In this document: positions 19,401 through 64,000 of the stretch, piece after piece
How positions within the stretch are numbered: position 1 is the stretch's first letter
How the letters are laid out: every line of letters begins with the position of its first letter
Assembly (NCBI GenBank): GCA_973895155.1
Contig: OZ316894.1
Span: 16,236,699 to 16,300,698, forward strand
Source of the DNA: Marsupella aquatica
Lineage: Eukaryota; Plantae; Marchantiophyta
Reading direction: 5' to 3'
Length of the DNA: 64,000 nt
Notes under the pieces: generated by a model
Databases searched by the model: none
What the model was told of the DNA's origin: nothing
Seen by the model: the letters and a program-made list of their open reading frames with translations, nothing else
Translations under genes and position numbers: made by a program

Positions 19401-19932
19401 CCGAGTGAGACAGGTCACATGGTTGACTGGATTGAGAGTTATGACGATGCCGTGCCTCCAGCCAGAACAGAATGGCTCTAATAATACCACGCAGACCTTT
19501 CTGACCCCCACCAAGCCTCTGGATGCCTTCCACTAAGACACTCTCTTTGATCTTGGTAGCTCTAAGTTGAGCATACAGTTGCGCTGTCGCGCACGAACCC
19601 TTCCGTTGTGCAGCCTCCTCTGTTGTTAGGTCCGACGTGTATCCTGGGGAGCCTGATTCATCAACAAGGCCTCTACTGTGGCTCCCCCCGATCTCTACAT
19701 TACTGCCGTCTGCACCACCACTTCCCGACGAAGTACCGATAGAGTCTCGTCCAACAGCAGTACCAACAGAACCGGAGTGAAGAAAACTACTTCCTGCAGA
19801 AATATCCATGGGCTCATCGCGAAGCCACGTACAAACATCTGCCTCAGCAGGAGAACTGCGCTGCTGGTGCAGTCTGCTGAACTGGTTGTGATAATTGCTA
19901 CCTTTTACGTCGGTGGAGCTAGACATGGCCAT
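16437..19932 (-). CDS. ABI3: ABI3/VP1-like B3-domain transcription factor (LAV family), 6 coding exons; start may lie further upstream
   Basis: Exons 19932-18223, 18080-17976, 17840-17740, 17603-17557, 17116-17040, 16838-16437 all have GT-AG introns and splice in frame (~813 aa). B1-like LRATKIKESVLVEGIQRLGGGQKGLRGIIRAILFWL; B2 STRLARKQRMDRNR; B3 [32 protein letters not shown]...[31 protein letters not shown]. The 101/47/77-nt B3 exons fit the usual ABI3 layout. The frame stays open upstream to ~20240, and the stop overlaps a GTAAGT, so both ends are uncertain. Confidence 0.93.
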
Positions 19933-35339: not shown

Positions 35340-35820
35340 AACAGGGGGACAAACGCAGGCACCCAGACCATGACCAGGAGGGAGAGATGGTTGAACCAGG
35401 GCTCTAGAGCATTTGACCCTATGTAAGGAAGCCACAAGGGACCCAGACCACAGGAGGGAGAGAGGGTTGAGTCAGGGCCCAAGGGACAATACCCAAGGAT
35501 CCGACAGGGACCTAAACCAGGAGGGAGAGAGGGTTGAACCGGGCTCCCAAAGTGGACCAGCCACCTAGTGACCCCAACCAGGAGGGAGAGAAGGTTGAAC
35601 CAGGGGACAATACCAAAGGATCCAAGAGGGAACCAGACCAGGAGGGAGAGGGGGTTTCCAGGGCCCCAAAGTGGACCAGCCAGGGAGGAGAAACCAGTAC
35701 TCGTCAACAATCATTATTATCTACACATACACACACATACCCTCCACACCCCTTGCATGTGGAGGGGGATTGAACCAGAACCTCTTGGTTCTAGGTTAAT
35801 CCCTTGGCCAACTGATCTCG
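35340..35820 (-). mobile_element. tRNA-derived SINE-like element with ~60-bp degenerate tandem repeats
   Basis: On the - strand the head reads AGATCAGTTGGCCAAG...GGTTCAATCCCC (A/B-box-like). Repeated CCAGGAGGGAGAGA..GTTGAACC units at 35340-35690. Related copies at ~672-1220 (+) and ~36120-36745 (-). Confidence 0.55.
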
Positions 35821-43012: not shown

Positions 43013-43713
43013 TTATATCACCTCTTGAGAAAAGAGGTCTTTGTCTCTTTATTCTGGTAGTATATTCTTACATGTATTTCCTAACCAATTTTGGTCAGGA
43101 CACAATTTAAATGGACAGCTGGACAAGGTTTGGTAAAACACTGACCTCTCAATTTTTTCCTGTTTTTCTTGTTCTCATTTCCACTATGAATATATATCAC
43201 ACTGCCAAAATGACAGGAATGCCAAACCTGAAGACATGATCCCAAATGCAAAAGAACCCAATAAAGGGGGGGGGAGGGAAAGATCCTAAGAAGACTAAAG
43301 AGGCCCAACAAGTCAAGGATCAACCCACAAAAACAAAAAAACTAAGAAGAAAGCAACAAACTAAAAACCCTACTGGGCGGTAAACTAAAAAGCTTGGTAG
43401 AGCTCAGGAGTAAACCGCATAGGAGGGTCACGGAGGGGAATGTGTCTAGAGGCCCTAAAACTGACAGCCTCAGCCCTACAAAGAATAGTGAAAGCCTGGG
43501 CCCTCTCAAGGGTGAATGGAGGGACGGGTTGGAGTGTTGGTTGAGGTCTACCTTTAAGGTTAGCTTCACTTTTTTAGGTCAGCTCCACTATTCACTGCTA
43601 GTGAACAGTAGCTAGGCAAGGAAGGGGGGCTTTTGTTGTATAGGGTCAATGCATATAATAAAAGTAAAAACTCAAAATTCATTCCCCTAAAGAGCAAAAC
43701 AGAATGGGAATGG

Positions 43714-44057
43714 TGTTAGATATTGCTCTAATCTTGTGACTCATGAGCCAACCACAGTTCGTCTAACTCGGGTTAGGACTAAGCTAATGTTAGCGGTAGT
43801 GCTGTTGTGCATATAGTCAGGGCTGATGCCAGACCCTAGTGGAACTTAGGCTCATTGTTACGGAGCTAGTTGAGAGATAGGGAGAGCTTGTGTTGTGGAT
43901 GTTTGGTATGGTCGGTCGACCTAGAGTGCAGTAAAGCTCTTGTGTGTTCCCATGGACGTAGCCTCATGTGGAGGTGAACCACGTATCTCTTTGTGTCGAC
44001 TCTTGTGCGTTGGATGGTTCATGGGCTTGCCATTGCGAATGTCGTCTATGCTCAACA
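43714..44057 (+). repeat. Copia 5' LTR
   Basis: TGTTAGATATT...CTCAACA; direct repeat of 51318-51661; followed by PBS. Confidence 0.95.
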
Positions 44058-45024
44058 AGTGGTATCAGAGCATGCCTGGGAGGTAACGAGGTTTTTTTGT
44101 GATGGGTTTTTTCCAGCGTTCAGTGTCGATGGTACATTTGGAGTTTTGTCGCATGAAACTCGAATGTGTGTGGCTGAGCAGATAGGTTAGTGAGAGGGCT
44201 TTCTAACGGTGGTTAGAACTCGCTGATCGGTATCCGTGGTGCGGAGGAATCAATGTTTGCATCATTCAAGGTTTATTCGTGTTCGACGGTATTTCAGGGG
44301 AGAGATCAAAGTTTGCTTTTTTTTCAACGGTGTGAGCTGTGTGGTGCGGGAGGGATCGCACATTATAGCTCAACTTGAAGGCTAAAGCGCGCTGGTCATT
44401 TCGGTAGCTGGATTGCTGCCGAGTTATTACCGAGTGCGATGTGACGAGTGAAGGAGGCGTTCAGGTTTTTTCACAAGCTATGGAGCTTGTTCTCATCTGA
44501 ACTGGGTTTCTCTTCGTGACGTCCGACTTGGTGGAAGAAACGCAAAGTGCTACGGCTCAACGGGTGATCGCGGTGAGGCGGTCATTTTGAGCCCGGGATT
44601 GGCACTTGATGTGGAGTGAAGACGACGCGGCGGAATTTGTTTACTCTGCTGGAGCTATAGACTGTGCCGGTGAAATTCGGCAACATTTACCATCGGCGGC
44701 GTTCATTTTTCTCATTGGAAACGGCGGCGGTTAAGTATTGGACTCCTAGCTTCGTGGGCTACGCGGCGGTGTTGAGTTTTGAGTTTTATGAGAAGTTTCA
44801 AAAAAAGACATTTTTTGTGATTGTTTCATAGGAGTGACTCGGAGGATACTAGAAGAATTGGCGTCGGTGGAGCTTCAGGATCACAATGGTCAGACGGAGA
44901 GTCTGAGGAGGAGTTGCTACCATTTGAGGAGGAACTAGTAACACCGGTAGGATCACCGGTGCGGTGTGCAGTGGAGGAAGCTGTCATGCTACCAGAGTTT
45001 TTGGTAGTTGGGAAGAAGAGAGAG

Positions 45025-45570
45025 ATGGCTAGATTTGGAGGAGTGAAGTTTGAGGTGGAGAAGTACGATGGTTGTACTGATTACTTGCTCTGGGAGAAGC
45101 AAGTGAAAGGTGTCCTTCGGGCCATGGGCTTAGCTCATCTGCTCTCTTTGCGAGAGCAGTATGATGGAGAAGAGGAGATCTCAGAGAAGCAGTGGAGACA
45201 GAAGCAGGTGATTGTTGTTAATGCAGTGATGCTTTATCTAAAGCCGCACATCATCAAGCAGCTGGATGATTATGCGGATTGCGCGTCACTGTTCAAGGCT
45301 CTAAGAGAGAAGTACTACCGGGAAGATGCGTCAGACTGGCTGTACAAGAAGTCTCTGTTGATGAGCCTCAGGCTCAAGGAAGGGAGCAAGATGCAGGATC
45401 ACCTGGATGAGTTTGACAGTCTAGCGGTGGATCTGTCAAACTTGGGGAAAATTTTAGATCTACATCATCTGGGAGATCTAAATCCAGAGGGAAATTGCAA
45501 GAGAGGAAGCCTCTTGCATGTTGGAATTGTGGCAAGCCTGGCCACATGAAAAGGGATTGTTGAGTAAAGG
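45025..45570 (+). pseudogene. Copia gag remnant
   Basis: KFEVEKYDGCTDYLLW...LRLKEGSKMQDHLDEFDSL (UBN2-type gag), then a frameshifted zinc knuckle CWNCGKPGHMKRDC ending at the gypsy junction. Confidence 0.85.
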
Positions 45571-48500
45571 TCATGTTGGTCCTTACGCAATAATGCGTTG
45601 GCTGCCGTGTTTGTCTTCCCAGGAACGTGGCGGACTTCAAAATTGAGATCCGCCAAGAACATTTGTCAACGCATTTCCTTGGGGTTTAGCCTTGGCTTAG
45701 AACTGAAGTACCCGGCCAGCGAGCTATCTGTGTGGATTACCACTTTGGGACCGTTCTTAAGGTAAATCTCCCACTTCTTCAACGCATAGATCACAACATA
45801 TATTTTCCTTTCCGGCGTGATCCAATGATTTTCCAACTTACATGACTCAAAGGCCACAGGACGCCCATCTTGGTGAAGACAGGCGCCAATGGCATAATCA
45901 CTTGCATCTGTCCAAATCTTGAACGGCTTCCCCATCTCAGGTAACTTTAGAACCGGCGGCGTTATCATTAATCGATTAAGTTCTAAGAATGCTAACTCGC
46001 AATCCTGTATCCACACAAACACTTTGTTTTTCAACGTTAGCGCATTTAGGGGCCTTGCAATCCTCGCATAGTCTTTCATGTATCTCCGATAGAACCCCAT
46101 AAATCCTAAGAAGGCTCTAACCTGCCTTACATTGGACGGGCGCTCCCATTCTTTGATCTCCTTAAGCTTGTCCTGACTAGGCGTAATCCCTTCCGGGGTA
46201 AAGGTATGGCCGAGGAACTAAATCTCATTCATCGCAAACTCGCACTTGCTTGGTTTAGCAAAGAGACGAGCCTTACGAAGGCGAGAGAACACTTCTCTGA
46301 GCAACTGCTCATGTTCCTCCAACGTTTTCGAGTAGATTAGGATGTCGTCAATAAAGACAACAACCCTTGGTCCAACAAGTCATGAAAGATGGTATTCATC
46401 ATCTTCATGAATGTTGCGGTTGCATTACACAACCCGAACGGCATAACTCATAGGATCCGAACCTTGTGCGCATCGCGGTCTTATACTCATCTCCCTTAGC
46501 CATGCAGATCTGGTAATACCTAGACCGCAAATCCACCTTTGAAAATGTCTTAGCCCCGGAGAGGCAATCGAAGAGGTCATCCATATGAGGTAACGGGTAC
46601 TTGTTCTTTATTGTTTGCTTATTGAGCGCCCGGTAATCTACACACAATCTCAAAGTACCATCCTTTTTGGACACAAACTGCGCGGGCGCCCCGTAAGGAC
46701 TCTTACTAGGGCGAATGAACCCTTGGTCGATCAACTCTTCCAAGGCGTTCTTCAACATCATTCGCTCATTCAGGTTCAGATGATAAGGAGCTTTAGCCTG
46801 AGGAGACGAACCTGGCTCCAACTCAACTTGGTGATCCACTTCTCTCCGCGGGGGTAAACCTTTAGGTAGCTTTTGCGAGAGCACGTCGTTGAATTCCTCT
46901 AAAATTTCAGGAATTCGACCGCAATCGGGCCCGAGCTTAGCTGACTTGACCTTTGGCTGCGACGCAGCCTCCTTAGTTGGGTGGAGATGAAAGAAGAAAC
47001 ATTCATGTCCACCCTTTAAGTCTTTCCACCATTGTTTCGCCGATACACACGGAGACAACCACGACACTTTACTTACTTTGAGAAATCTTTCTTTATTTTT
47101 GGTAACTTCGTGTACAACGATGGGCTCACCGCCCTTATTGGGAAAATGGAGCACCTCACCCCCCGGTTTCAAGGTAACATTGTGCTTTCTGAGATAACCT
47201 ACCGACAAAATGAAGTCTATGGCTAGACCGTCTAGAACGTAGAACATCGTCTGACTAACAAAATTTTGTTGCTCGCCTATGACCTCTACTCGAAGTCTAT
47301 GTACCACTCTCGATACTATCCCCTTTGTGTCGTTGGCAAACTTGCACACTAACGGTTGTAGCAACTCTTGCACGTCCACCCCAAGACGTGCTGCCACCCG
47401 CCCACTTATGAAGCAGGCGGTCACGCCTGTATCCACCAACGCAACACCCAGGCTACCGTTAGAAGTGATATTCACAAAAATCAGTTTTTCAGGATCCATT
47501 GTCTTAACCTTAGGTATCTTCTCTTGCAACAACACCCTCTCTCGGGTAGGAACATCCCCTACAGGGACTTTGTCAGCTACTAAGGGTTTGGTTAGAGCAA
47601 TACTTACCTTAATTCTCTTCTGCCCTCCACCATCTCCGCTCGGCTTGCCACCTTTCATGGAACAATCCTTACTTTGATGGCCCATGGCACCACATGTGAA
47701 GCACAAACCTTCAGCCCACCTCTGCTCCATGGTTGCCTGCTTCTTTGCTTTCTGTGCCGATGAGGCTCCTTTCTTGAAGTTGTCGGCCTTCCAGTTTTGC
47801 TTAGCTTCTGCATTCTGGGGCTGAGGATCCGAACCACCGGCCCCTGCCCCCTCGGGTTGCTTACGCTTATTCTTGAAACCTTTTGTTTTCCCAGCTTTCC
47901 CCTTGGATCCCTTGCCACCCACCTTCGCCAAGTCCGGTTGGTTATTCACCAACGTAGTGGCCTTGTCGAAGGCGTCAGAAAGCATTTTGAACTCATGATG
48001 CTTTTCCTACAACTTTTCCCTGAGCAACGGCGGGAGCTTCACGATAAAGTTGTGAAGCTGTGTATGCAGGGTCTCTTGTCCCGTCGGGATACACGCCAAC
48101 TGATTCTGGTAATAAGTGATGAACTTTTGGATATCACCCCTGAAGCTCATCTCCGTTACACATTTCTGAGCGTGCCGCTCCGGCTACTTAGTGGTGACAT
48201 GAGCACGGAGACCCTCAACCAGGTTTTCCCAAGTTAACAGTAAGGAGGAGTCCTCTCGCGACTTCTTCCATGACTTGTACCAAGTCAAGGCATAGTCCTT
48301 CAGGTAAGGAGCGGCTGCGATAGCCCAAGTGGAACGCTCAACGCACGCTTGGAGATGAATCTCTATCGTGGAGAGCCAACTCAGGAACTTTTGTCCACTT
48401 TGTTCGTAGGCCCCGTCGTAAGTTGGAGGAGTCGGTAGCTGGTTCACTTGGAACATACTCCGTCCAACTACCATTCCCCCCTCGGGATGCGTCGCACTCT

Positions 48501-49000
48501 GACTACCTAGACTAAGTAAGTACTTAATCTGGGCCCCCTTGTTGTGTTCCAACTGCTCATAGATGAGTCATTGGTCATGAGTCAACGGACCCAGACCGTC
48601 GTCAGCGCCGGGACCTTGCGGGTTGTATGAGGACGGTCCTCCAACCGTCTTTCCTTTGTGGGCCGCCTATCCTTAGGTTCTCTTGTGGATTTTGGTGATA
48701 CCCCCGCGTCTTGCGAGCACCATGACCTCCCGGGACTGAGGTATCACCCGCGTCATCCTGGTTCTGTTTGGTCAAATTATCCACGATGACGTCTGGCTTG
48801 ACATCATCCTCTGGTTCCGCATTCAACCCTCTCAAGGCTGGGATCAGTTCCTCCTCTTGGTCCTGCCCTGCTTCCTCTATTTTGGCTTCAGCCTCATCGT
48901 CGCTTCCTTCTGCATCGGAGTTGATCAACCACCTCCTTCCCTTTAAGTCGGCGGCACTCTGCACTTGACGTGTTTGCCGCAATGGTCGATGGTTCGGCCG
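45571..49000 (-). pseudogene. Gypsy gag-pol (gag, aspartic protease, RT, RNase H), degenerate
   Basis: ORF fragments 48602-48982, 48184-48552, 46405-47985, 45666-46100 and 45465-45662 in gypsy domain order. Confidence 0.9.
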
Positions 49001-49281
49001 TTGCGTCTTCTTTGTCCTGCTTGTAACGTTCGTCTAGGGAAGTCGACCCGTCCTTCTTCTATTCATCTTGAACTTGGGCTCTCCCCTTGGTGGGGGGAGC
49101 CTGTTTGCCACTCTTTGAACGAGTGTTTTTAGCCATGTTCCCAGCGACCAAATCTGCCCGCAGTCGACCCGTCGGGCACGTTGAAGCACTAAGTTCCCGC
49201 AAAAATCTGTTAAGATTTTTGGATTCCGACTTAGCACAACTTTGGCCCGGTGTCTATGCCAGCAATTGCTTTGATACCACA

Positions 49282-50724
49282 AGTGGTGGACCTTACCACC
49301 CAGCTCCCTCACCAATCCCAGCACTCACGCCTAAGTGCCCTTGGTGCCCGAACGCCTCCACGGAATACCTCAAGCAAGCAACCTAGTGCCCCTTGCACCG
49401 CCAGCGGCCCCTCCCATACCAAGCCTCACTTGCTCTCTAACACGACCGCTACTCAACGGTCCTCCCTTTCTGCACAAGCAACCAAGCACCTTGGTTAAGT
49501 GACCCTTCAGGATCTAGAACTCGGCAAGTCTAGCATCCTAACTCAAGCTCAACAGACGTTGGTAAATAGGTCAGCGATAGGTCCTCCGGATGCCATAAGC
49601 CGGAACCAGAGCCTGTGCCCACTGTCCGTCCAGGACAACTCCTTCCTTGGGTGCGGCCCGGGTTCCCCCTTGTACCTATCCATCACCAACTGACCGCCCT
49701 GACCTCAGACATGCTCATGGCCCAACTAGCGTAGCCTGTCCTAAAGCTTGTCCCAACAAGCCGGGACCAGAACGGCCCCGACTCTAGCAGTCGCTCCCGG
49801 TTTGCCCCACCAATGGTCTAGGGGCCGATCACCCTTGGAACTCATCCTCCACACCTACTTGGCCTTGCCTCCCCAATGCAAGCTCCCTTGGGAGACTGAA
49901 CGTGGCTTGGCTACTGTTCGGCAGGATTTGGCAAGCGAGCAAGCTAATACCCGTAAACCACGAGAACCCATGGCACCTCTAGACCCATCTGAGCCCAGGA
50001 AGTCCTCCAACGGACTTCCCGTTGGGAAGATATCGCCATTTCCATTTGGTGGTTTCCCTTAGTGTCGCGACCGCCGCGGCTCACGACTTCAGCTCGCCCT
50101 TAGCCCCCAGGGAGACACCACTCCCCTCATATATGCTTCTGGAGACCTGCCACCCCCGGACCAGCTTTGGTCCCTAAACATTTGGCCCCCAACCCGGATC
50201 CTATCGCGCATAATGGGCGCGCCACCAACTGGCAACGCCCATAACTTTCTCGTTAGGCATCCGCCAGCGGAGTGCCTTAGCCCGTTGTGACCGGGCCGAT
50301 CCACTGCTCATGCCTAGGCCCTCAGGTCTCATTGTTGCTTGGGGCCCCCGATCGGCCTAACCCGGATCGGGCCGTAACTTGCGCCCCAAGCGTCCGTTGC
50401 CCATGGCGTCAACTCCATTGGGCTTGGGCCCAAGAGGAGCTCACACTCAAGCCCTTAGAACTCAAAGTCCATCCGGAGGTCCGAACAGCCCTCCTTGAGC
50501 CCGGCCCATTTCGCCTTGACCCGACCAGCTATCAGTTAGTCCAAGTCCTTAGTGTGTGTCCCCAGCTCGGCTCCTTGCCTCGCTAGTGCCACGGCTCATT
50601 GCCCACAAGTCTCCCCGTGCTAAGTCCTCCCTGGATGGCCTATCCGGGCCTGGACCATAAGGGAGCTTGGCGTCAGAGTCAGTGACGCCGGAGCTAAGTG
50701 TTAAGGTAGTCGAGTTCCGCGACT
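49282..50724 (-). repeat. Gypsy 5' LTR (~1.44 kb) with AGT...ACT ends
   Basis: On the - strand it begins AGTCGCGGAACTCGACTACC and ends GGTCCACCACT, 2 nt before the PBS. Homologous to 6940-8404. Confidence 0.9.
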
Positions 50725-51106
50725 AAGATGTATCAATTGGAAATCTACCTTGCAGAAGTGCATATTTCAGTCTACTACAAAAGCAGAGTATGTTGCAGTA
50801 GCAGAAGCAGCAAAGGAAGCAATTTGGTTGGACAAGTTGATCGCGGAGATGGGTTTAGAGCATGGCAAAATTACTCTAAACTATGATAGTCAGAGTGCTC
50901 TTCACTTGGCTGCTAACCAGATGATGGATAGCAGGGTAAAGCACATTGATATCAGGTACCATTTTATCAGGCAAGCAGTGTCTGATAAAACTTTTGAGCT
51001 AGTCAAGATTGATGGAAAGCTCAATCCCGCTGATGCCTTTACCAAAGTGATTCCTTTGGAGCGTTTCTCAAGACACCGTGCTACTTTGCAGGTTTTGGAG
51101 TTGTAA
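50725..51106 (+). pseudogene. Copia RNase H remnant
   Basis: INWKSTLQ...STTKAEYVAVAEAAKEAIWL...YDSQSALHLAAN...RVKHIDIRYHFIR...NPADAFTK. Confidence 0.92.
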
Positions 51107-51317
51107 TACAAGTAGAGTTATTTAGCAATGTGTGACTATTTGTATATGGATTACTCATTCATGTTTGGCTACGGCTTAGTTCTAGTTAACCCTTAGTTAA
51201 CATACCCTTGTGGTTTTTAGGGGGAGACCTGGTTTGGTGATTGTCTAGATTTTCCCGCTGAGGATTCTATATGGTAGCATTTAGTCCAGTCCCCAAGATA
51301 AGAGTCAAGGGGGAGTT

Positions 51318-51661
51318 TGTTAGATATTGCTCTAGTCTTGTGACTCATGAGCTAACCACAGTTAGTCTAACTCGGGTTAGGACTAAGCTAATGTTAGTGG
51401 TAGTGTTGTTGTGCATATAGCTAGGGCTAATGCCAGGCCCTAGTGGAACTTAGGCTCATTGTTACGGAGCTAGTTGAGAGATAGGGAGAGCTTGTGTTGT
51501 GGATGCTTGGTATGGTCGGTCGGCCTAGAGTGCAGTAAAGCTCTTGTGTGTTCCCATGGACGTAGCCTCATATGGAGGTGAACCACGTATCTCTCTGTGT
51601 CGACTCTTGTGCGTTGGATGGTTCATGGGCTTGCCGTTGCGAATGCCGTTTATGCTCAACA
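51318..51661 (+). repeat. Copia 3' LTR
   Basis: TGTTAGATATT...CTCAACA; preceded by PPT; followed by TSD AATGG. Confidence 0.95.
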
Positions 51662-52793
51662 AATGGAGTGTTTTAACACAAATGAGTGGTTTAATGAGGA
51701 AACTCAACCTCTTACACATTTGAAACCAAAATGCACAATTAACAAAAGACAAGGAAATATAATTCTCCTTCATAGACTATAACTCTAGGACTTTTAAAAT
51801 CAGGCTTTAGCACTGCACTACCTCCATCACCATAGCTTATGGAAGGATATGGCCACTTTAAGATGTTAAAAGGTACACAAAACCCCTCTCTGATTGCTTC
51901 CCAAATTTATACTCCCATTTCTCTTCCTTCTAGTATTACACTAGAAGAATCCGAGGTGAACTGAGACCGCAATATGTGACTCATTTTGGCTCATGTGACT
52001 TCATTGTGACTCAACGTGACTTGACCCACGCTGTGACCCTTGGAGTTGCAAAAGTTGAGACCAAAAAATGGTAGTCACTATTGATACTGGGCTTTGCAAC
52101 TTGCTTGATACCCATTTGTGACTGATCTGTGACTTTATTGTGGAGTCTAGCCTTGTTTCGACGTGACTGCAATATGACTTCAGCGAGTCACATCGTAAGT
52201 CACATGCATGACTTACCCGCATTCAACAACGACTAGTGTGTGACCATTTAGTGTCACAGGAGAGACCAATGGAGACCCTGGCCCGCGTCACACAACAGAA
52301 CCATTTGGGACTCTATATACTCATGTTTATAACTAATAAGGTTCACATGCAAGTTATAACCATGACTAATGAACACAGAGGGACAGTTCATAAGGAGAGA
52401 GAGCACTCGACATTACAATACATAGAAACCTGATGTTCTAACTTTAGAAATATAACACATTCAATACAAGAAATGAACATAGCATGAATGACATCCACAT
52501 GAAACAAAGCATCATATAAGCAGATCCTACATAAAACATTCATAAGAATTAAACACAATCACAATCTTGCTAAAAAATGAAGATCATTTGAATTCCAATG
52601 GAATAGTTTACAATGTGATCAATGTAATTCAGACAAAACAGGAACTCATAATTGATGACTGCAGGATGAGATAACTGAAAGCACATGCATGATACTATGA
52701 ATCTCCAAGAGGACATGATTCTTGTACTGCTTCTTGACATCTAAAATCTACATAACATGACTCACACTACAAACAAATAATGACATGACATTG

Positions 52794-55700
52794 TTATGGA
52801 TCCTCTATGAACTTGCTTGGCCATAATACCAAAGAACCTGCAGCATCTCCAAGTGTCTTTTGAGGAGGATCATCATTTGTGTTTGGAATGGGAAGGACAG
52901 CTTTAGGTTTCACTAGTAATGTGACTAACACTACTGAATAACCTGGGGGAATCCTCTTGCCATGGAACGTTGTGGAACCAACCTGCACTCTGCCAAATCC
53001 TACTCGTGTTCCACTCTCATCAAGAGCTAACAAGCCACTTTGTCCCTCAGCATTAGGTGCTTTCCCCACTTCCACCTTAGATCTTTCTGCCAGCACCGTT
53101 CTTGGAGGTTTGTATGAAACCTTTGACGTGGCTCTGCTCCCACCAGCAGACTTGCTTCGTGTGCGCATGCTTCCTCTCTTCACAGTAGTGAAGCTAGGCT
53201 CAGTAGGTTCCTCTATTAGGACTGTCATAGTAGCAGGTTGATCACCTGGGAGTGTCATACCAACTAACTCTTTGGTTGGATTTATCTCAACAAGAGGCAC
53301 ACCTGTCATTGAGAATGATACATTCTGCAAATCATTTATCTCTGCAATGGAGTCAAGATCTACATAGCATGAATCTGGCTCAATGGTATCATTGTCATGC
53401 TTGCTGATATCCTCATTTGCCCCAACATTGATATCATCCACTCCCTTGCCAATGTCATCCTCATCCAAACATGGTTGACTGCCCTCTGTCAAACAAGTTG
53501 CTTGTACAGACTGCAACTTTGTTGCCTCTAAATTACAGCGAGTATTTGCCAGGTTCTCATACTTCTTCTCTGTAGCACCTGTCTTATTCTCTATGGACAC
53601 ATCAACCACAATATATGTTACTGAAAATAACACATTCGACAAACAATGTCAATTCAAACTATACATTTAATAATCATATCCCACACAGTTGTAAAGGCCT
53701 TACCTTCAAGCCTACATGTCGTTGGCATGCCAGAAGAGTGCATCGACTTTGCCACCTCAAGTGGTGATGGTGGAACTCCTGCAGAATTGGAATCAATTTT
53801 ATCTCTCACCGACACAACAGCTTCCATTAATGTCTTGAAGTTCACATGGAACAAGTCAGTCAATGAATTCAAACGTTCATTGATCTCTGGAAGACATGTT
53901 TCGACAGCCTTCAAACGACCACTTATCTCTGTAAGTGAAGATCCACCTCCCTACATGACACAGGGGTATAGGTTCAATCACTCCATATGAAATGTTGGGC
54001 AATATATGCACAATCAATGTTATATACAGTGTACACCTGAAATTCAACGCAGGTCATTCAATTACCAATCAGAACTCATATAACTTACATGCTTGGAGGA
54101 TTCAGATGCACCCTCTTGAGCCCGGGTGTTCACAATTTCAGCCCTCAACTCTTCTTTTGAAGGGCTTTGCCCCAATTGGGCTTTCTGCACATGCATGGCA
54201 AACACAAGTTATCGATCAATATTCAGGGAACGTACACTAAAAAACAAAGTTTACATGTATGGGTTTACACTAAAAAACAGTACATAGTGTAGCATAAATT
54301 ACATAGCTAGGCCATTCATTCTTACCAAACGTTTAGCTGTCGGTGCAGTGCCGGTCCTTCCTATCAGATTAGGGTTCTGAACACTCAACCTGGCCTCGGT
54401 CATCTGTGAACTCTTCTTTTTTGAAGCATCTGTTACAAAATAAGCTACTAACCTTGCCCACACTTTATCATCACAACTGGCTGGTGGAGGCATATCTGGC
54501 TTCTCCCCACCTTCCTTCCAAGCCTTATGCATTCTCCACCTCTCTTGCTTGATGATTTTACCTGCTGTACTCTCTAGGCAACCTATGTCCACGCCATCAT
54601 CACTGCCCACATAATTCCATTTGGCAGCAACATTTTCACATACAGTCTTCCAATCTTTTGGATGTTGTTTTTTAAAATTAATAACACTCACATCTAACCA
54701 ACGCAATACTTTAGCTTTCAAATCAGCATGCCATCGGTTCTTGCGAGGACACTCAGCATCCACCCATTGTCTCTCATTCAACTTTACGTTCCCTTTCTTT
54801 GTCACCTCCCCTCGTGCACTGCTCTCGGTAGTACTGGGCGTTGTATTGGCCACCCCTTCATTCACCCTACCTGGGGTTCTGAAGCCACCTGGGAAAATAC
54901 AATGCCATTCATGCTTGAGAACTACATATAGCAGAATGGATGACGGCAACATTCAATGCTTCACTTCAAGAAAAATTCTTCAAACATACATACCTGTAGC
55001 TCTGACTGCACTCTGAAATTGTTGCGACCCTGGACCACCTGTCCAGCCTAGTACAGGGGCCGGATGATGTCACTTTCTAGGTATGTGTGTGCAAACATAT
55101 GTACTGAAAACTAAGTACAAACTGTAGGAAAACAACTGAACATTCACCAACATACCTGTCCCCCTTCCGTGCTGCATCTGCATAGGGGCATTAGTGAATA
55201 CTTGAGTCGATGGTTCGACTGTCCAACCTGCACACATACATTTTCTATCATTATACATGTGCAGAGTCCCCCCCACGTGAATGGACTCCAGATATAATGA
55301 GTTCTTCCATTGTTGACAAGATCAGACATTACCTGCCCCTCTTCCAGCGTTTGTAGGTACTGAATTTTGATATCCCTGCCAATTACCTTCACCACCTTCC
55401 CAACCTTGTTCATTCCACGACCCACCACCATCCTCCCAACCTGGTTCAACCCATGTCTGTCCTTGTGGACATTGGAACTGATCATTACTAGCATTTGCCC
55501 AATCAGGTTGGGCAGAATCTGCATGCAATGGCAGGTGGACAGAATTTCATGTTGTCTGAATCCAATACATCCCAAACAATGTCAAAAATTGATATGCAGT
55601 CTGAAATTCAGGAGTGCCATGCCTTCACAAAGAACTGGCATATAGATATATACTCACATCCCCATGGTTGAGGTGGACGTCCATACCCACGAGATTGTGG

Positions 55701-56479
55701 GTTTGGACCTGCTCTGCCTCTACCACGGGCATAACCTAGAGCTTGCCCCCTGCCATAGTATTGGGCACCAGCCTGGGATCTACCACTACTACCACCTCGC
55801 CAACCTTGATCAGAGGTCAGCCCCCCCTGCTGGTATGGTGCATGCACAGGCTTCGAAGGCAAAACAGAACTGGCAGGACGCTGCATCACATCACCAACTA
55901 CAATGTCAGGAACTAAGCAAGGTACATATGTGTAGTACTGAACATATGAAACCTCTAAACAAGAGTTTTTAACTCAAAACCTTGTTGGGAAAACTACTTA
56001 CCTGTTTCTTTTGGGGCTGCTCTGCAATGTATTCATCTTCATAACCCCCATCCTCATCCATTTCCTCTGGAAAATACTCATCATCTGCATCTTCTTGTCT
56101 AGTGTCTGCACCCACCTGTGCAGCATCAATGTCATCTCCACATTTTGCCATTGTAGGTACGACCTTCTTGCTCAACCTGTCACTCCGACGCACAGGCCCA
56201 GAGATAGTGCTGGTCACCCTTCTTGCGTACTCCTTTTGTTTCTTTGAAAATGCTGTGGCTCTGCGACATTCCAATATGAGAATACAGTCACAATTTCAGT
56301 GCCACATTGAACTATTCATGTCACACAAACTCAGCGGAGGGGTGTAGTTGAGAATCGTTCCCTTACAATTCAGCCACATCCTTTTCCAGATCCAGTTCTG
56401 CGATTTTGGCTTTCACGTATGCTCGTTGTTCCATAGCTTTCCTTTCATACTCACACATCTCTGTGTCACTCTGTTCCAT
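52794..56479 (-). CDS. CACTA TnpA-like accessory protein (Ptta/En/Spm-type domain plus C-terminal Tnp1-like domain) with N-terminal GW/RG-rich region; 10 exons, apparently intact
   Basis: Predicted exons 56479-56367, 56260-56002, 55880-55658, 55518-55333, 55227-55156, 55047-54994, 54888-54326, 54184-54089, 53950-53704, 53620-52794; all GT-AG, 2640 nt in frame (~879 aa). Contains PPASCDDKVWARLVAYF...KKSSQMTEAR...GRTG and HGKRIPPGYSVVLV...LPIP...TLGDAAGSLVLWP, typical of CACTA second ORFs. Confidence 0.8.
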
Positions 56480-56635
56480 CCTACTGGACCACAAAAACAT
56501 GTCATCTACGATCACCCCGTATAACACAATGCAACCACAATCACCAGGCATCCATCCATACATCTGTGTTGCTTCAGAATTACTTTATTACACATCCTTC
56601 CCCTCACTAATGTCCATGCAAACAATTCACATTAC

Positions 56636-59600
56636 TCATGGCACAGGCACACTGTTGGCATCTGCATCTCTGAATTCGCCTCCTTCAGCAAATGCATCTA
56701 CCCTTGTCACAGGAATGAAGTCCCCGCTATCATGAACTACAGGCACTTGGTCTGAACGCCGACGATCAAAGGCACTATGAGAGTGTAAATGAAACTCAAG
56801 GTTTGATCCTTCCATCCGACGTTGCCTGGCCTGTTTATGACACACTACACGCCAACCTGGGGAGTCTTCCACATCCAGGAAGAAAGCTTGCTCCACCTGA
56901 CTAGGAAACACAAATGGCTCAGACCATTCGGGCAATTTCCCTCTGAAATTGGCCAGCAAGAAACCGTCGTTGTCTCTCTTCATGGTAGCCCTGTTACCAA
57001 GCCAATCCTGCCGCACCCATGAACCTTTCATAAGAATCACAGGACTGGACACCGCCCCATAGTCCAGAGCCCATATGTCAACTAATTCTCCCACATATCC
57101 CATCTCCATCCAGGCCCTGTCGTGATTGTGGCTCTGTTGCTCAAATACAGTGATGAACCCGCAGTCATTCGTCACCCTGTAGGCACTGTCACCATCCTTC
57201 ACTCGAAAGTGATTCCCATATGCTCTCATCCGTTTGTAAGTCTTCACTTTCAGGCTAGGGGCATTAGACAGTAGGTAAACATCTGCATCCATGTCTGGGT
57301 GGGTCTCGTGATGCTCTCTAATTGCCACTCTGATCCACTCCATGAAACCTGGAAAAGTTGTTCCTGCAGTGGGATGGGCCGCCTTCAATGACTCATACTC
57401 CCTGAACGAACAACCACACAGCATTAGCTTGGGTAAACATGAACAGGCTGAAGGAGAAAACCACACGAACACAACATTTAAGCTCATGAACTGGATTATA
57501 GCACATGTATGCACTCACTGTATCCAGGGTTCCATCACCACAGTGTTGTGCAATACAAAGTCATGTGCCAAGTCTCTCATAGATATGGTCAGGTTCTTTG
57601 TGGTTGCAGCCCCTTCCAGTACTTCACCTATCACCCCTTCCTCCTCATCAGAATTCCACACCCTGGTCTTCACATGCTCATATTGTGCTATGTATTCGGT
57701 CAGAAATCCTAGAGTCTCATCCTTGATGTAACCTTTAGCCATGCTTGCTTCAGGTTTGTAATATGTTCTCACGTGACCTTTGAGTAGCTTCATGTACCGT
57801 TCCAAAGGGTACAACCAACGAGCACTCACAGGCCCAAATTGGTGTAGCTCTTCCACAACATGGACAAGTAGGTGGGTCATGACATCAAAAAATGCGGGAG
57901 GAAAATAAATCTCCAGGTCACACAGCACCTGAGCGACATCTTCTGTCAGTTGTGGGAAGTGTGTTTCATCCCAAACCTTCACACAAATACGACGAAACAC
58001 ATCACTGAGTCGCATGATCACAGTACGAACAGGCTTCTGCAACAGGCCCCTCAGGCATAAAGGCAACACCTGTTGCATCAACATATGGTAGTCATGGCTT
58101 TTCATACTACCAAGCTTTCTAGTCATGATATGCTTCTTGAAAGCACTGCCATAGTTTGAAGGAACCTTCAAAGAACTCAACCTCTGCACAAATAGTTCCC
58201 ACTCTGTGTCTGTCAGAACATAGGGCGCTTGGTACTTCAAGAGCACATCAGCTCTGTGGGCATGTGGCCTCAACCAAAGATGGGGTTTCATTCCCCTCTG
58301 TTCAAGATCCAATCTCACTGAACCAGTGTCTTTCTCTCCACACAAGAATCTGAGTAGACTCTCACAAATATTCTTTTCAATGTGCATAACATCAATGTTA
58401 TGTTTGCTTGGCTCAAACTCCTGCATCGTTGCAATGCAAAAGCGTCAGGAAATGCCTCAAGTTTAGTCTCTCTCTTCGAAATGAATGCACATGCTCTGAA
58501 CCAAAACATGTATCCCAATTAGCATCAACTCCAAGAGGCTTACCCTCCAGTACTTGAGCTCCAAGTCCAATATGCTCAGTCTTTTTACACCATATCGCTT
58601 TATTGGATCACTCACTCCATCTTCCCTGCCCCCTCGTTTGATATAGTCATCCCTCAGTGCTCCCCACTGCCTGATCTCCTCTTTGGTCACTCGTGCCGGG
58701 GGTCCACGTTGCTCAATCTCATTGCCAAAGTGTGCAATCAGTGCCTGTCTTTCTCTGTAAGGGTGATCTGCCTTCAGAAAACGACGATGGCCCATGTATA
58801 TCACTTTCTGCAGGGCTCTGGAGTACTCACTCGTGACATTGCGCCCACAGATAGTACAAGCACAATATCCTTTTGTTGTTTGGCCTGATATCATCCCATG
58901 GGCTGGGTAGTCAGCTATAGTCAAAATGACAATGGCTCTAAGGATGAATGGGTTTAACCTCCCAAGCCTCTGTAGGACATCATATGTGAGAACTCCTTCC
59001 TCCCAAAGCTTTCTCAATTCCTCCACTAGGGGAGCCAGAAACACATCTATGTTGGCAGATACAGCACTGTCTGGCCCTGGTATCAGTAGGACCATCAGAA
59101 CAAAAAATTGCTTTGTAGTCATCCAAGGAGGAAGGTTATAATTCAAAATAGTTACAGGCCAACACGAAAATTTGTTGTTCTTGTCTCCAAATGGGTTTAC
59201 CCCATCCAATGACAGCCCAAGTCTGACATTCCTCGGCTCAGCAGCAAATTCGGGATACATCTCATCTATGAGTTTCCATTGCCTTGAATCTGCAGCATGT
59301 CGTTGTAGCCCATCATCACTTTTCTTGTCAGTTGCCCAAGTCATCATCTCTGAGATGGCACGGCTTCTGAACATCCGCTGAATTCTGGGAATGAGTGGAA
59401 AATGACGAAGTACCTTGGCGGGAACCATAGACTTTCCTGAGTTCCGATACCTGTGCTTCCCACACTTAGGGCATGTCAACGATTCTTTATACTCCTTTCT
59501 GAAAAGAACATGCCCATCAGGACAGGCATGGATCGAATCATAGTTCAATCCAAGATTAGATATGCATCTTTTTGCCTCGTACATGTTCTTGGGCAAAATA

Positions 59601-60367
59601 TTACCATCTGGTAGCACAGTTGTTTGCAAGAATGCCAACAACTCAGAAACCAAAACGTTGGGGACATTGTGGTTGCCGCAAATGTTCAGGAACATGATGA
59701 CAAATCCCAGTTTAGAACATTTGCTACCGGGGTACAAAGACTTCCTGCCTTCCTGTATTTGCAGGGGAGAGCCAAACATCCCATCATGCCCAGGGGTTTC
59801 CTGCCCTATCTCAAACTCATCAAGAGGCTCTTCAACAGGGGGCACACTTGCATCTGCAGCCGTATCCTCTTCGTTGTCCAGCCCATCATGAAATGCATCC
59901 AAGTCTTGGAAGATGTCTCTCACCATCTCTTCCACATGAATTCCTTCGTCACGTGGTGCTGCCTGAGCACCATCCCGTTGGAGAGCTGACAACCCATAGA
60001 GACCAGCTACAACATTTTCAAATGCACCAGGCAGAACCTCACTTGCCCGTCTTGCAGCATTGGCAGCATCAAATTCTAACCTCCACTCCTCGTCGGAAGA
60101 ATCTTCCTCTGCAGGATCATTCCAAACTCGATGTTGTGGATCTCTTCCATGAACCGCGATATGCCGCCAAACCTCATTCAAACCCCTGGTACGGGATCCT
60201 TGGCAGATTGCACAAGGACATCTCATCCTACTGGCTCCTGAAAGTCTGGTTCGTAACCTTTCACGCTGCCAAAGCTTATTATCATGGCGTGATATCCTTG
60301 TGGGATGATGCAAAGGCAGTGCCTGTGCCCTGGGCTGGGTTTGGGGAGGGTGGTGACCAGGGTGCAT
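56636..60367 (-). CDS. CACTA TnpD-like transposase (transposase-associated Zn domain, Transposase_21, DUF4218/DUF4216-like), 3 exons, apparently intact
   Basis: Exons 60367-58544, 58420-57519, 57401-56636 join in frame (~1163 aa). Motifs CPCAIC, IHACPDGHVLF, HAADSRQWK, EPRNVRLGLSLDGVNPF, NYNLPPW, DYPA, HNIDVMHIEKNICES, MKSHDYH, FPPAFFDVMTHL, WLYPLERYMKLLK, EPFVFPSQVEQAFF. Confidence 0.93.
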
Positions 60368-60899
60368 TGTAACAGGCTGGAAGCTCTGCAGTCATGGACA
60401 GCAGTGAACAGGGATGCCTAATGGTGGTATTTGTGTTCCATATATCCCTGACTGTATGTGCCAAAAGAGTTAACATAACGTGTAATAAATTCTCACAAAC
60501 CCTAAACCACCCCAAAAGAAAAAAACAGGTTTGCGAGTAGTGTACCTATTGTCAAATGAATGACACAAAATTCCTCAATGTTTGAGGGTGTCACCACCTC
60601 CACAGCTGTCCTCAAATGTACCGCCTCTGCATGTACACCCATGACCATATCAGAGTCCAATCATGTATAGTCATAGGCATAGGTGTGAGAGCGGTATCAG
60701 ATATCTCACCGCCGAGATTTGAGCCCACCCAGTACGTTTACAGTGACACCCCCAGGCAGCAGGAAACAACAATCCGCCAACAGTAAAATAAGCCCAACTG
60801 CCACCAACCATAACAAGGTACATTAGTTCAAAGATCACATTTATTTCAATGATCTGATTTATACAAAAAAACTTGTGTCCAAACTGATGCTACTACTCC

Positions 60900-61772
60900 T
60901 CACTCTGATTCAGAATCGCTAATGACCCATTCCTCACTTGTTGTCTCATAGTCCTCTCTGTAAGGATCCTGACCCTTCCGTGGCCAGGCCTCAAAAAGAT
61001 CATAGTCCATTGGGTTTTGACACTTCCCAGCTGCTACTAATTCCACAAGCCAAGCATATGAAACCACAAACACATTATGGGACATGACATAAAAGCGAAT
61101 GTCTCCCTTCCCAAACTTGCGGCAGGCTTTGGGATATGACTTAGTAATGACATGAGTGGTGTCCTCTGTTATATTCTCCTCAACTGTCCCACCTAGGTCA
61201 AGCACCGTGGACTTGTACACTTTGCACTTAACCTCTCCAATTCCCGCCTCCACAAACACCATGCTCAGCCCTTTCAGAATGGGGGTTGGTTGCTTCGTCT
61301 CCTCAGCCAACATACTCTTCAGCCTTCTAGAGCTCTGTCCTTTGTTGAGTACAGGTCCATATTGGACATCAGCAAGCCGTGCCTTTGCTTCCCAGACTTC
61401 TTGTTCAGCCCAAGCTGATGCAGTAGCTTCTTCATCCTCCCACAGCTCATATTGCTCAGTATCCTGTACAATCTGATGTGCCATGGAATCTGTGATCCAA
61501 GAGGCCTCAACTACTTTTAGGCCTTGCTTAGTAATTGCAGAATTCATGTAGGACCATGACCACTTCTTTATCACTGATAGCCATGTCCCTGCAACAACAT
61601 GTGTAGTCTCTAGAGTGATGTCCTGAACTACAGTGCCATGGAGCTCAGAGAATCGTTTCTGTACAGTTGGTCAATGCACTTTGGTCAACCCATGCTGGCC
61701 ATGGACCAAAATGGCTCTGACCCCTGTAAACACTGCTGGGTGGTCACACTTTCTACGTTTCCCAGGCTCCAT
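60900..61772 (-). pseudogene. Tandem-BRCT protein gene (BRCTs resemble DNA polymerase lambda N-terminal BRCT) with one in-frame stop
   Basis: ATG at 61772: MEPGKRRKCDHPAVFTGVRAILVHG...KVH*PTVQKRFSELHGTVVQDITLETTHVVAG...VVEASWITDS (BRCT1). BRCT2 is LKGLSMVFVEAG...LGGTVEENITEDTTHVI...KFGK...VVSYAWLVELVAAG. A single TGA lies at 61673-61671; the frame is otherwise continuous with ORF 60900..61574. Confidence 0.75.
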
Positions 61773-62364
61773 GTACACACACCCTACGTGATGACAGTGA
61801 ATTTTGGAAGAATGGGTTCACCTGACAATACAAGGACAACAAAATTCCTGCTTTTTGAGTTGATCTGGCCCACTGGTGCTCAGGTCCGATTTTGATAGGT
61901 ACAAGGGATATGTGAACAATACATACTAGGCACCTGCACGGATGCAGGACATTGTTTGAATATATACTACAAAATCCATATCGAAGGTGAAATGAAGTGC
62001 AACCAACTTGTCATGGCACATACATATTTTGTTGTAAAGGAGGATACATTCAATGACAAACTTATAGGGCAATTTGATTAATCGCATGCCTGATAATTTA
62101 TACGCTTACAACTTAGAAGTCCTGTTTTAATTTAGCAGTCTGATGAAAGTGTTTATGAAAATGACCACTCAGCCTAAATACTTCCAAGAAGGCTTGTAAG
62201 GATAAGTTTTTATAGGCATGTACCCAGCCACTGACGCCAGAGCACAAGATAAGTGCTGCCTATATAAACTCGCCTACCCAAGTCCTTTTCAAAATTGGAA
62301 TCTCTGCAATCTCAAAAAATAGTACATCCACATCAGGTGCACTGTGCATGTACAATGTTCAGCT

Positions 62365-63045
62365 TCACAGCCAAGATATGTGATCTCTCACAGGAGTGCG
62401 CGAGGTAGGATCAATGGCATGGCGATGACAATAAAATATCCATCGATCAACACCATGTGCAGAGTGATCATAGATTTCTCTATCACAAGCATAACCCTCT
62501 GCTTGACGATCTTTCAGGCAATGATAGTGCCACATGGTGGGACACCTAGCACAGTGGACTATGTCAGTCCAGTACTCATGATCATGCTCACCACATGCCT
62601 TGCACCTATGAAGTGGGCAAGTTGTGGCATGAGTAGGCAAACACTCAAAACAGAAAAATCTCACACAAAAACGGTCTGGACATTTCCTAACATTTGCTGC
62701 AACATCAACAGAGCCCTCATAGGACCCCAACTTCCCACACTGTGCACACTTAGCCTGCTTCTCCAAACAATCAGTGCACATCCAGTCTCCCTGGTGTGTT
62801 GACGGGAGGCCCACCCCTGGACAGTTGTTTTCTGCAGCAAGGTCAGACTCCGGGTTGAGGTGGAAATGTCTCATGCAAGGGCCCTCACAAATGACCAGGC
62901 CCCCACCATCGTCACAAATGGCACAACAATGAGCTGCCTTCTGGAAAATCTGACTTGCAAAGAAGTTAGTAGCATCTGCCCCAAGTACACCTGTGTTTCT
63001 CACCTCTGTCACACGCTTTTTGGCTTGAATTTTAGGTCGTGCCAT
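62365..63045 (-). CDS. Stand-alone EDM2/NSD-type tandem PHD-finger protein (226 aa, intronless), probably CACTA cargo
   Basis: ATG at 63045. CAICDDGGGLVICEGPCMRHFH...C...WMCTDC...CAQCGKLGS...C...C...TCPLHRCKAC...CARCPTMWHYHCL...IFYCHRHAIDPTSRTPVRDHI follows the plant EDM2 PHD module as I recall it (CAICDNGG..CEG.C.RSFH...TCPLHKC...CRRCP..YH..CL...IYC..H.ID....TPVRDH). Confidence 0.8.
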   Translation of the reverse strand: MARPKIQAKKRVTEVRNTGVLGADATNFFASQIFQKAAHCCAICDDGGGLVICEGPCMRHFHLNPESDLAAENNCPGVGLPSTHQGDWMCTDCLEKQAKCAQCGKLGSYEGSVDVAANVRKCPDRFCVRFFCFECLPTHATTCPLHRCKACGEHDHEYWTDIVHCARCPTMWHYHCLKDRQAEGYACDREIYDHSAHGVDRWIFYCHRHAIDPTSRTPVRDHISWL

Positions 63046-63056
63046 GCCTGCGCATG

Positions 63057-63200
63057 AGATAGACTCTACAGTTTAGCAGACTGCACAGAAAGTAATATAT
63101 ATTTAGCATTTAAGGTACAAAGGCATTTAGATAGACTCTACAATTTAGCAGACTGCACAGAAAGTAAAATATATTTAGCATTTAAGGTACAAAGGCATTT
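63057..63200. repeat. 72-bp tandem duplication just upstream of the PHD ORF
   Basis: AGATAGACTCTACA...AAAGGCATTT x2 with 2 mismatches. Confidence 0.9.
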
Positions 63201-64000
63201 GCTACTGCAATGAATTGGAATGGCCACACAAGGATGCAGAGCAGACATACTTTTGGTATGTTGAGCCCACACACAAACCTGATCCCCTAATACAATTGCT
63301 CCACCAACACCTCAATTTTAATTGTGGCTATGATTCACCAAAGGAGATCTGCAACAACATTTCATGCATTTGAATCACATACAATAGTCGTGACATGTAA
63401 AACGCGCATTCTTCGAAGAGGATTGGTATGAAGCAGTGTCATAAGGGTTGAAATTTATACATCCTAAATAGGCTATGATAGTGGCTGAGACAAATAAGTG
63501 ATGCATAAATCACATTTTACAGGTTATCACATGGCCCATTAATTCATTGAACGTTGCAATGTTCACCAGGTTAAAGCAGTCATGAAAGCAGTCTTTCAAT
63601 AGAGACTTTTATGCGAGTTTGCTAGCCTCTTAAATTAGGATATTTTGCTTAGTGCAGGCATAATAGGATATAAGTTATGTACTGTTGACCCTAAACCCTG
63701 GACCCAAAATTGCTCATACATCAAAATTTTAAGTAAATATCCTCTGTGTTGAAGTCAGAGTGTTAAGCTATAGGTCAATGGTATCTGGTCTGTGCATGCG
63801 GTGTGACAAGTGGTCCTCTAGAGCATGTGATCCAAACATGTGTAGACACCAAAGTCACCGGTGGTGGGGTCTGGGAGGGCAGGACAAGTGACATCACCAG
63901 GCACACTGCAGGATGGCGAGTGGTTCCAGATGATACATTGTGCTCTGTGCAAAAATCGGCATCCAATTCTGGGCCAGAAGCCCTACAGGCAGGACAGTCA

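Follow-up and report, generated by a model that had tools for sequence, protein, structure and literature searches.

A multi-copy CACTA transposon with stand-alone PHD and BRCT genes upstream of its transposase genes

Here we describe a multi-copy CACTA transposon, of which the 12 kb at the 3′ side lie at the right-hand end of a 64,000-base stretch of DNA (contig OZ316894.1 of assembly GCA_973895155.1, positions 16,236,699 to 16,300,698; hereafter the window), in which a PHD gene and a gene with two BRCT repeats lie upstream of the genes for the transposase TnpD and a TnpA-like protein. The terminus, the subterminal repeats, the transposase and the multi-copy read depth identify the element as a CACTA. 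The two additional genes almost certainly belong to it and, to judge from their relatives, have probably been retained by selection. The explanation that we favour, with a probability of roughly 0.5, is that they are long-retained accessory genes, one encoding a predicted reader of methylated histone H3 and the other a predicted dock for end-joining proteins.

The CACTA terminus that had been predicted from the sequence is present, outside the interval 52794..63045 to which the original prediction had been assigned. It begins at position 51939 of the forward strand as CACTAGAAG, directly after TTA, and occurs only once in the window at 0 mismatches. We predict that this TTA (51936-51938) is the 3-bp target duplication, of which one flank lies in the window, and a contig from the public run X2 (depth 115) tracks this flank until its match breaks off precisely at 51938. 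Near the terminus, GTCAC/GTGAC motifs reach a density of 11-12 per 400 bp, compared with 5 or fewer in the rest of the window, and these subterminal motifs are likely binding sites of TnpA. Inward of them, the four genes follow one another on the minus strand, in the order (right to left) PHD, BRCT, TnpD and TnpA-like; the predicted series of four co-oriented genes is thus confirmed, with Pfam matches for PHD, BRCT and the transposase and a weak match to Transposase_24. Neither a terminus nor a subterminal block separates the PHD and BRCT genes from the transposase, including at 60.4-60.9 kb, as had also been claimed. A search of the window up to 64000 found no second terminus and no second subterminal block, and the read contigs extend beyond 64000, so that the element runs off the window, which contains no other copy of it within its 64 kb. 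CG depletion is even across 52-64 kb: the four genes have observed-to-expected ratios of 0.22-0.37, and the retrotransposon next to the element has one of 0.70.

At the window edge lies the 3′ end of a probable further open reading frame (ORF) rich in Cys and His, a 48-amino-acid (aa) piece of which has no match in Pfam. At about 63959-63966 the window copy is without 16 bases that are present in the reads, and the gap sits between two short direct repeats. At the other end of the element, the flank at 51926-51938 reads CTTCTAGTATTA and is similar to the inverted terminus, which may reflect chance or an insertion beside a related end.

The TnpD protein matches Transposase_21 (E 1.3e-70), DUF4218 (E 5e-28), DUF4216 and Transpos_assoc in Pfam. 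Its gene model, with predicted splicing of two GT-AG introns, contains the catalytic-type motifs LSLDG, IADYP and PLERY, which presumably hold the catalytic residues, and its relatives number 665 at E<=1e-20, the best of them 56-70% identical and the best named ones, from flowering plants, 34-43%. The TnpA-like model, likewise of predicted splicing, has eight GT-AG introns of 83-141 bases each and encodes an acidic N terminus, a Gly/Gln/Trp-rich region at aa 70-235, a helical domain at 54.3-54.9 kb and a conserved-looking C-terminal domain. The exon at 54.3-54.9 kb matches Transposase_24 with E 4e-4 and 7e-4, both below the cut-off, and the Atlas neighbours of the protein are streptophyte clusters, one of which has 32% PF03004. 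Both models are free of stops, in keeping with the earlier claim that the transposase and the TnpA-like gene are intact. That claim had extended to a GW-rich TnpA with a putative Argonaute hook. The dipeptides are there, with five GW and one WG in a Gly-rich stretch of 166 aa, but their enrichment over shuffled sequences is modest (p 0.044 when only GW is counted, 0.27 when WG is included), and two GW pairs straddle predicted splice junctions and so depend on the exon model; the composition at best hints at such a hook.

Whether the element includes the PHD and BRCT genes can be judged from contig depth, that is, the depth of assembly contigs in public runs, which is not a copy number. Five runs under three organism labels contain 59-68% of the sampled words, at ~98-99% identity. 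In X1, main-contig depth is 1554-1863 over TnpD, 1765-1799 over BRCT, 1641 in the spacer between BRCT and PHD and 1291 upstream of PHD, against 72-92 in the flank, and two contigs at position 62960 in the PHD gene have a total depth of 3252. The PHD and BRCT regions are therefore as deep as the transposase, at about 20 times the flank and in many variant contigs, and it is this common depth that places them in the multi-copy element. A second run, X5, has eight listed pieces over 52-62.3 kb at depth 27-58, compared with 7.7 in the flank. Contigs also overlap along this part of the element, from the start of TnpD to 60636, across the joint at 60632-60732 (in X1, X2, X4, X5 and X6) and from 60732 into BRCT. 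Runs X8 and X9, and X6 outside the deep bins described below, give short contigs with depths mostly of 2-20 and were excluded as independent hosts. The read depth rules out single-copy host genes beside a transposon. Such genes, like a terminus at 60.4-60.9 kb, would have refuted the original prediction by its own terms, and both checks upheld it.

A placement of PHD and BRCT in a separate mobile unit or tandem segment that adjoins the CACTA is very unlikely. Such a unit would agree with a second terminus and target duplication not being seen up to 64000, with no lone contig covering PHD to TnpD, and with the 99-base piece at 60633-60731 that differs between the window copy and the reads. Against it stand the lack of a terminus or subterminal block between the genes, the equal depth with overlapping contigs over the junction, and, in a distant family, a contig that probably carries both BRCT and TnpD relatives. 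The last of these comes from the BRCT relative P0137 (26% identical) and the TnpD relative P0026 (47%, with the same family-specific N terminus), each of which is found on an ENA contig of 13,432 bases. A coincidence of two contigs of this length has a probability of ~0.001 by chance, with 17 cargo rows compared in all, and the two proteins probably share one contig. As for the piece at 60633-60731 in the TnpD-BRCT spacer, contigs of five runs either lack its ~99 bases or have others in their place, and it may be a small insertion private to the window copy.

Features of the CACTA element in the window, with position, strand and basis of assignment
Feature	Position	Strand	Basis
CACTA terminus, on the 3′ side with respect to the genes	51939..51951	+	Unique sequence match
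Subterminal repeat block, GTCAC/TGTGAC motifs in both orientations	51960..52320	.	Motif counts, repeat families
TnpA-like gene, predicted 9 exons, 805 aa, stop-free	52794..56151	-	Splice model, weak Pfam
TnpD transposase, predicted 3 exons, 1163 aa, stop-free	56636..60367	-	Pfam, splice model, motifs
Intronless two-BRCT gene, 290 codons, interrupted in the window copy	60900..61772	-	Pfam, relatives, reads
Stand-alone triple PHD gene, EDM2/NSD type, intronless, 226 aa, start M-A-R-P-K	62365..63045	-	Pfam, alignments, tree
Probable additional ORF rich in Cys/His, 3′ end only, off the window edge	63760..64000	-	Reading frames, loose contig ends

In Pfam, the PHD ORF gives three NSD-type PHD matches below the curated cut-offs, and the best PDB matches of the protein are NSD2 and NSD3. 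The 1305-aa protein of locus L001, which we take to be EDM2-type from its RFD-like plus PHD layout, aligns with it over 210 columns at 30% identity (E 3e-25), as far as a TPVRDHI ending that the two have in common; L001 carries PF12047, and the window protein does not. The alignment to a full-length EDM2-type protein and the shared ending uphold the EDM2-like nature that had been proposed for this gene. An EDM2 orthologue was considered and rejected, as the protein has only 226 aa and is without the N-terminal RFD-like domain and the long C-terminal region; by its sequence, the gene is an EDM2-derived module and not EDM2 itself.

Among 90 candidates in a search limited to proteins of 124-396 aa, we found five relatives of the PHD protein, all five stand-alone, 217-245 aa long and 37-81% identical. 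The six proteins form one branch (FastTree support 1.0), and they share the C terminus DHISW, together with a deletion of ~21 aa and a His-to-Cys change that are absent from seven EDM2-type host rows. The two most distant relatives retain 28 of the 38 Cys/His positions but only 49-50 of 188 other residues. In X1, a second PHD variant with 34 differences over 234 letters is present at depth 1978. At the host-type loci L002, L006 and L007, interruptions fall inside the PHD module, whereas the PHD gene of the element is uninterrupted, a difference suggestive of capture through RNA.

In each of the six PHD proteins, M-A-R stands at the start or close to it (63019-63045 in the window); four of them have a Lys three places past the Ala, where H3 has K4, and the next 30 residues are variable. 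An M-A-R start is found in 4 of 204 fetched proteins that begin with Met, all four of them members of the stand-alone PHD family. Histone H3 begins A-R-x-K, and the N terminus of the PHD protein may be a mimic of the H3 tail, or may simply be a basic signal of the nuclear-localisation type. A PDB sequence search with this tail returned no match. The AlphaFold model of the protein is poor (predicted local distance difference test, pLDDT, 49.6), with only sub-threshold PZP/PHD matches in a fold search. A metagenome scan with the PHD alignment yielded 11 loci, all scored as host-type EDM2-like or other PHD genes, with no transposase seen in L001, L003 or L008. Two of the loci, L003 (541-1665) and L005, hold PHD-only EDM2-like transcripts of ~370 aa that start M-A-R-K and may be host or transposon-borne. 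Directly upstream of the PHD start in the window, a 72-base tandem duplication (63057-63200, 97% alike) spans a likely acceptor-like or promoter region.

The BRCT gene matches Pfam in two stretches (E 1.6e-12), and its start, the ATG at 61772, is placed as in two relatives of 294-295 aa that are 53-60% identical. In the window copy an in-frame TGA at 61671-61673 interrupts it at codon 34, a site at which every covering contig of X1 (depth 3539/3539), X8 and X9 has a Trp codon. The stop is private to the window copy and the gene is dead there, so that an intact toolkit is not supported for this copy; nor does the proposed trimming of the cargo to domain boundaries hold for BRCT, a 290-codon gene shortened by this stop.

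A BRCT profile search of 1.84 billion proteins gave 52 at E<=0.001, of which the top 12 are the cargo family or pieces of it. Full two-repeat relatives are 264-313 aa long, with two more (293 and 321 aa) that ranked lower or came from a cluster look-up, and the stand-alone relatives are 22-60% identical to the window gene, the distant ones 22-31%. Related short proteins with a single or double BRCT (P0139, P0140, P0152, P0154, P0156 and P0170) may be family fragments or N termini of Pol lambda. Scans of viral contigs and prokaryote genomes for BRCT and of viral contigs for TnpD gave no matches, the Atlas returned only generic BRCT clusters under 0.9, and the AlphaFold model is again poor (pLDDT 32.0). 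Tandem BRCTs that bind phosphopeptides, of the BRCA1/TOPBP1 type, have closely packed repeats and a Ser/Thr-Gly phosphate pocket; here the repeats are ~50 aa apart and the Ser/Thr-Gly motif is not evident in the alignment.

On the side of a Pol lambda ancestry, polymerase X domains occur among the BRCT-profile matches (P0161, P0167 and P0218), and 24 of 28 family repeats find their best pairwise match among the hosts in a Pol lambda-type repeat, or 20 of 28 without the doubtful rows P0154, P0165, P0217 and P0218. The Pol lambda-type class in this comparison comprises 16 of 53 host repeats, four assigned by domains or near identity and the others by tree grouping and judgement. A derivation from the BRCT of Pol lambda is likely on these matches, with the tests as a whole mixed. 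The gene is not a whole DNA polymerase lambda, a candidate that we rejected, as Pol X catalytic domains are found in neither the window gene nor its relatives. In our own alignment to human Pol lambda, the second BRCT repeat of the window has Lys at the place of the Ku-binding residue R57.

Evidence that the cargo has been kept comes from X6 (organism D), where 10 of 16 coding bins, as opposed to 0 of 14 others, exceed depth 50 (Fisher p 0.0003), with TnpD, BRCT and PHD all covered. Because the deep bins are coding only, the abundant relatives in this run resemble TnpD, BRCT and PHD in their coding parts alone. That both PHD and BRCT belong to old families of stand-alone, like-sized proteins argues for retention, as the original prediction had preferred, and not for recent random capture. 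A passive cargo of host fragments, captured by chance as in Pack-CACTAs and amplified with a successful element to no benefit, is a rather improbable account. Capture of host sequence by CACTAs is documented (PMC13317346; statements on the literature refer throughout to the accessible parts of the cited papers), and in the window copy BRCT is broken, as is the probable third ORF. Frames that stay open between a start and a stop of their own nevertheless persist at 37% (PHD) and 22-31% (BRCT) identity, the conservation in organism D is confined to coding parts, and the family has Trp where the window copy of BRCT has its stop.

Differences between the window copy and the reads bear on the same question. 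At PHD residues 29, 115 and 138 and BRCT residues 97 and 245, the read residue agrees with the relatives, so that the listed differences, mostly private to the window copy, represent its decay; they show no constraint and are no test of the family. The window copy is ageing, at about 1-2% from the family.

As a mechanism, PHD and BRCT would each have been captured once, probably through RNA given that they have no introns, and then kept as aids to transposition. The PHD of RAG2 serves RAG1, and the PHD protein of the element might cooperate with TnpA and TnpD in the same manner, allowing the element to be expressed from, excised from or targeted to nucleosomes that bear a given H3 mark. The BRCT pair, like the BRCT of Pol lambda, would pass on to Ku/XRCC4-Lig4 the break left by excision or the gaps left by insertion. 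The host counterparts have properties of this kind: EDM2 is bound to H3K9me2 chromatin, where it keeps proximal polyadenylation down (PMC7529245), and with ASI1 and AIPP1 it promotes full-length transcripts at H3K9me2-marked transposons (PMC7529245; PMC10241880). Ku is the docking partner of the Pol lambda BRCT, in which R57 and L60 matter most, and a catalytically dead, Ku-binding Pol lambda hampers gap filling (PMC12056208); in Arabidopsis, this BRCT binds Lig4/XRCC4, and the enzyme is implicated in excision-site repair and T-DNA integration (PMC4444747). We give even odds to PHD and BRCT acting on host chromatin and repair to the benefit of the element. An anti-silencing function, which the original prediction had also raised, finds no support in these data. 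The precise combination of H3 reading with end joining is more tentative, and a full cassette of at least three host-derived genes (an H3-tailed EDM2-type reader, a doubled Pol lambda-type BRCT and a zinc-binding protein) together with an Argonaute-hook TnpA is doubtful.

Several observations weigh against the reading of PHD and BRCT as long-retained accessory genes. The span from PHD to TnpD is not covered by any one contig, and the shared-contig link between P0137 and P0026 is indirect. Some of P0001-P0005 and of the BRCT relatives, all known from proteins alone, could be host genes, and ~370-aa PHD-only EDM2-like transcripts are found elsewhere, at L003 and L005. The PHD protein is without the remaining EDM2 domains. 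Among the coding differences listed between the window copy and the reads (drawn from 40 each of 908 and 220), 9 of 33 are synonymous, or 27%, a neutral-looking share that a passive cargo would explain, with a neutral expectation of 21-28%; in the PHD gene it is 1 of 10. As to the Pol lambda ancestry, a 12-sequence Pol lambda profile is beaten for 20 of 28 repeats by a 37-sequence profile of other BRCTs, the sizes being unequal, and with equal-size profiles Pol lambda wins 10-22 of 28 over 15 draws. Its tree branch is weak (47/88), the PDB scores of REV1, PARP4 and Pol lambda are about level, and the position aligned with the Ku-binding Arg R57 is basic in 6 of the 16 family repeats shown, compared with 5 of 5 Pol lambda-type hosts.

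The main rival is that the proteins are selected as decoys that jam host factors, which we consider unlikely. The PHD protein would be a competitor of EDM2 or of further readers, possibly also by way of its H3-like N terminus, and the BRCT protein would block end joining, such that the donor break is repaired from the sister or homologue and the element restored. The parts that give the host relatives their catalytic or effector activity are absent from both proteins, and the M-A-R start of all six PHD proteins, with Lys in four, resembles the A-R-x-K start of H3; dead Ku-binding Pol lambda, as noted, hampers gap filling (PMC12056208). A diffusible decoy, however, would benefit all elements and damage the host, and broad anti-silencing is called rare in plants (PMC12973397). 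The M-A-R-x-K start, moreover, is possibly just a basic start of the nuclear-localisation type, and host-type PHD-only proteins also begin M-A-R-K.

Least probable of all is that the element is silenced less because its cargo looks like essential genes of the host, or that the host itself uses the proteins. Camouflage of this sort has been proposed for captured genes (PMC13317346), but at ~30% protein identity to EDM2-type hosts a likeness of the DNA at the level of small RNAs is unlikely, and the cargo is as CG-depleted as the transposase.

Should the cassette reading be true, a plant transposon would possess a RAG2-like chromatin cofactor of its own, and would be tied to break repair through a protein that it encodes itself. 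Chromatin choice, survival of silencing and break repair are known for few plant cut-and-paste elements, and described CACTAs use TnpD and TnpA. With the reader and the repair adaptor as separable genes, each step could be tested by deletion of one small gene. Host chromatin and repair factors would here be recruited by a transposon, the opposite of the usual domestication, and the proteins are possible parts for steering transposon-based insertion tools.

Elsewhere in the window, a Copia-like long terminal repeat (LTR) retrotransposon occupies 43700-51670, with LTRs 95% alike over 349 bases and a Gypsy-like element nested in the opposite orientation. This neighbouring LTR ends near 51670 and hence yields no empty-site sequence for the CACTA insertion. 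At 16437-20238 on the minus strand lies what we take, from its motifs, to be a plant ABI3/VP1-like transcription factor gene with B3-type exons, for which Pfam gave no match on the unspliced frames. Together with the LTR retrotransposons and the streptophyte Atlas neighbours, this gene marks the host as a plant. Two degenerate minisatellite-like arrays, at 12665-13193 and 35363-35682, have units of ~18-20 and ~60 bases.

VANC, the accessory protein of VANDAL elements, is a sequence-specific DNA binder. PHD-bearing MULE/Rehavkus elements and VANDAL VANC (PMC6446971, PMC12973397), as well as RAG1/RAG2, resemble the window element in having chromatin-related domains or accessory genes. In Rehavkus, the PHD is fused to the transposase (PMC6446971), and the domains in the MULE/Rehavkus group are mostly such fusions or of another PHD type, with BRCT genes described in none of them in the text accessible. 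In Table S6 of a survey of 1007 plant genomes, all five PHD rows are MULE, and BRCT appears as one singleton among 775 CACTA clusters (PMC12973397). Accessory proteins of various kinds are described in a survey of 962 structures encoded by Spm elements, with neither PHD nor BRCT in its main text (10.64898/2026.08.24.746577), to which its supplements may add. A CACTA with PHD and BRCT accessory genes was not found in the literature that we searched, which mostly excluded subscription papers, and a Repbase consensus may exist. Pack-CACTAs, reviewed for gene capture in PMC13317346, likewise have host-derived coding sequence inside a CACTA; we rejected this class for the window element, as Pack-CACTAs are non-autonomous with decaying fragments, whereas the window element has open TnpD and TnpA-like genes and a complete, intronless and long-conserved cargo.

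With regard to the origins of the cargo, the PHD gene shares its triple PHD with EDM2, of the ASI1-AIPP1-EDM2 complex, and with NSD PHD1-3, and its TPVRDHI ending with the EDM2-type protein of L001, yet unlike EDM2 it is the module only, ~21 aa shorter, with one His changed to Cys, intronless and without the RFD-like and C-terminal parts. The BRCT of Pol lambda is the most frequent best pairwise match of the BRCT gene, in which the domain is duplicated, the polymerase domains are absent and, by our alignment, the Ku-binding Arg is mostly lost. The element itself has the same terminus, subterminal repeats and Transposase_21/DUF4218/DUF4216 as the CACTA/En-Spm elements (maize En/Spm; Arabidopsis EN/SPM2, 5, 6 and 9), and, head to tail with TnpD, a separate second gene of putative TnpA type, in the arrangement of Arabidopsis EN/SPM (PMC13547354). 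If the host is not a flowering plant, its TnpA-like gene would widen a range that is given as flowering-plant-only in the accessible parts of PMC13547354 and 10.64898/2026.08.24.746577. To this common plan the window element adds two, probably three, stand-alone genes upstream of TnpD, and it is a variant within a known superfamily: a CACTA in multiple copies that carries two or more old genes, probably kept by selection, of predicted chromatin-reader and repair-adaptor type.

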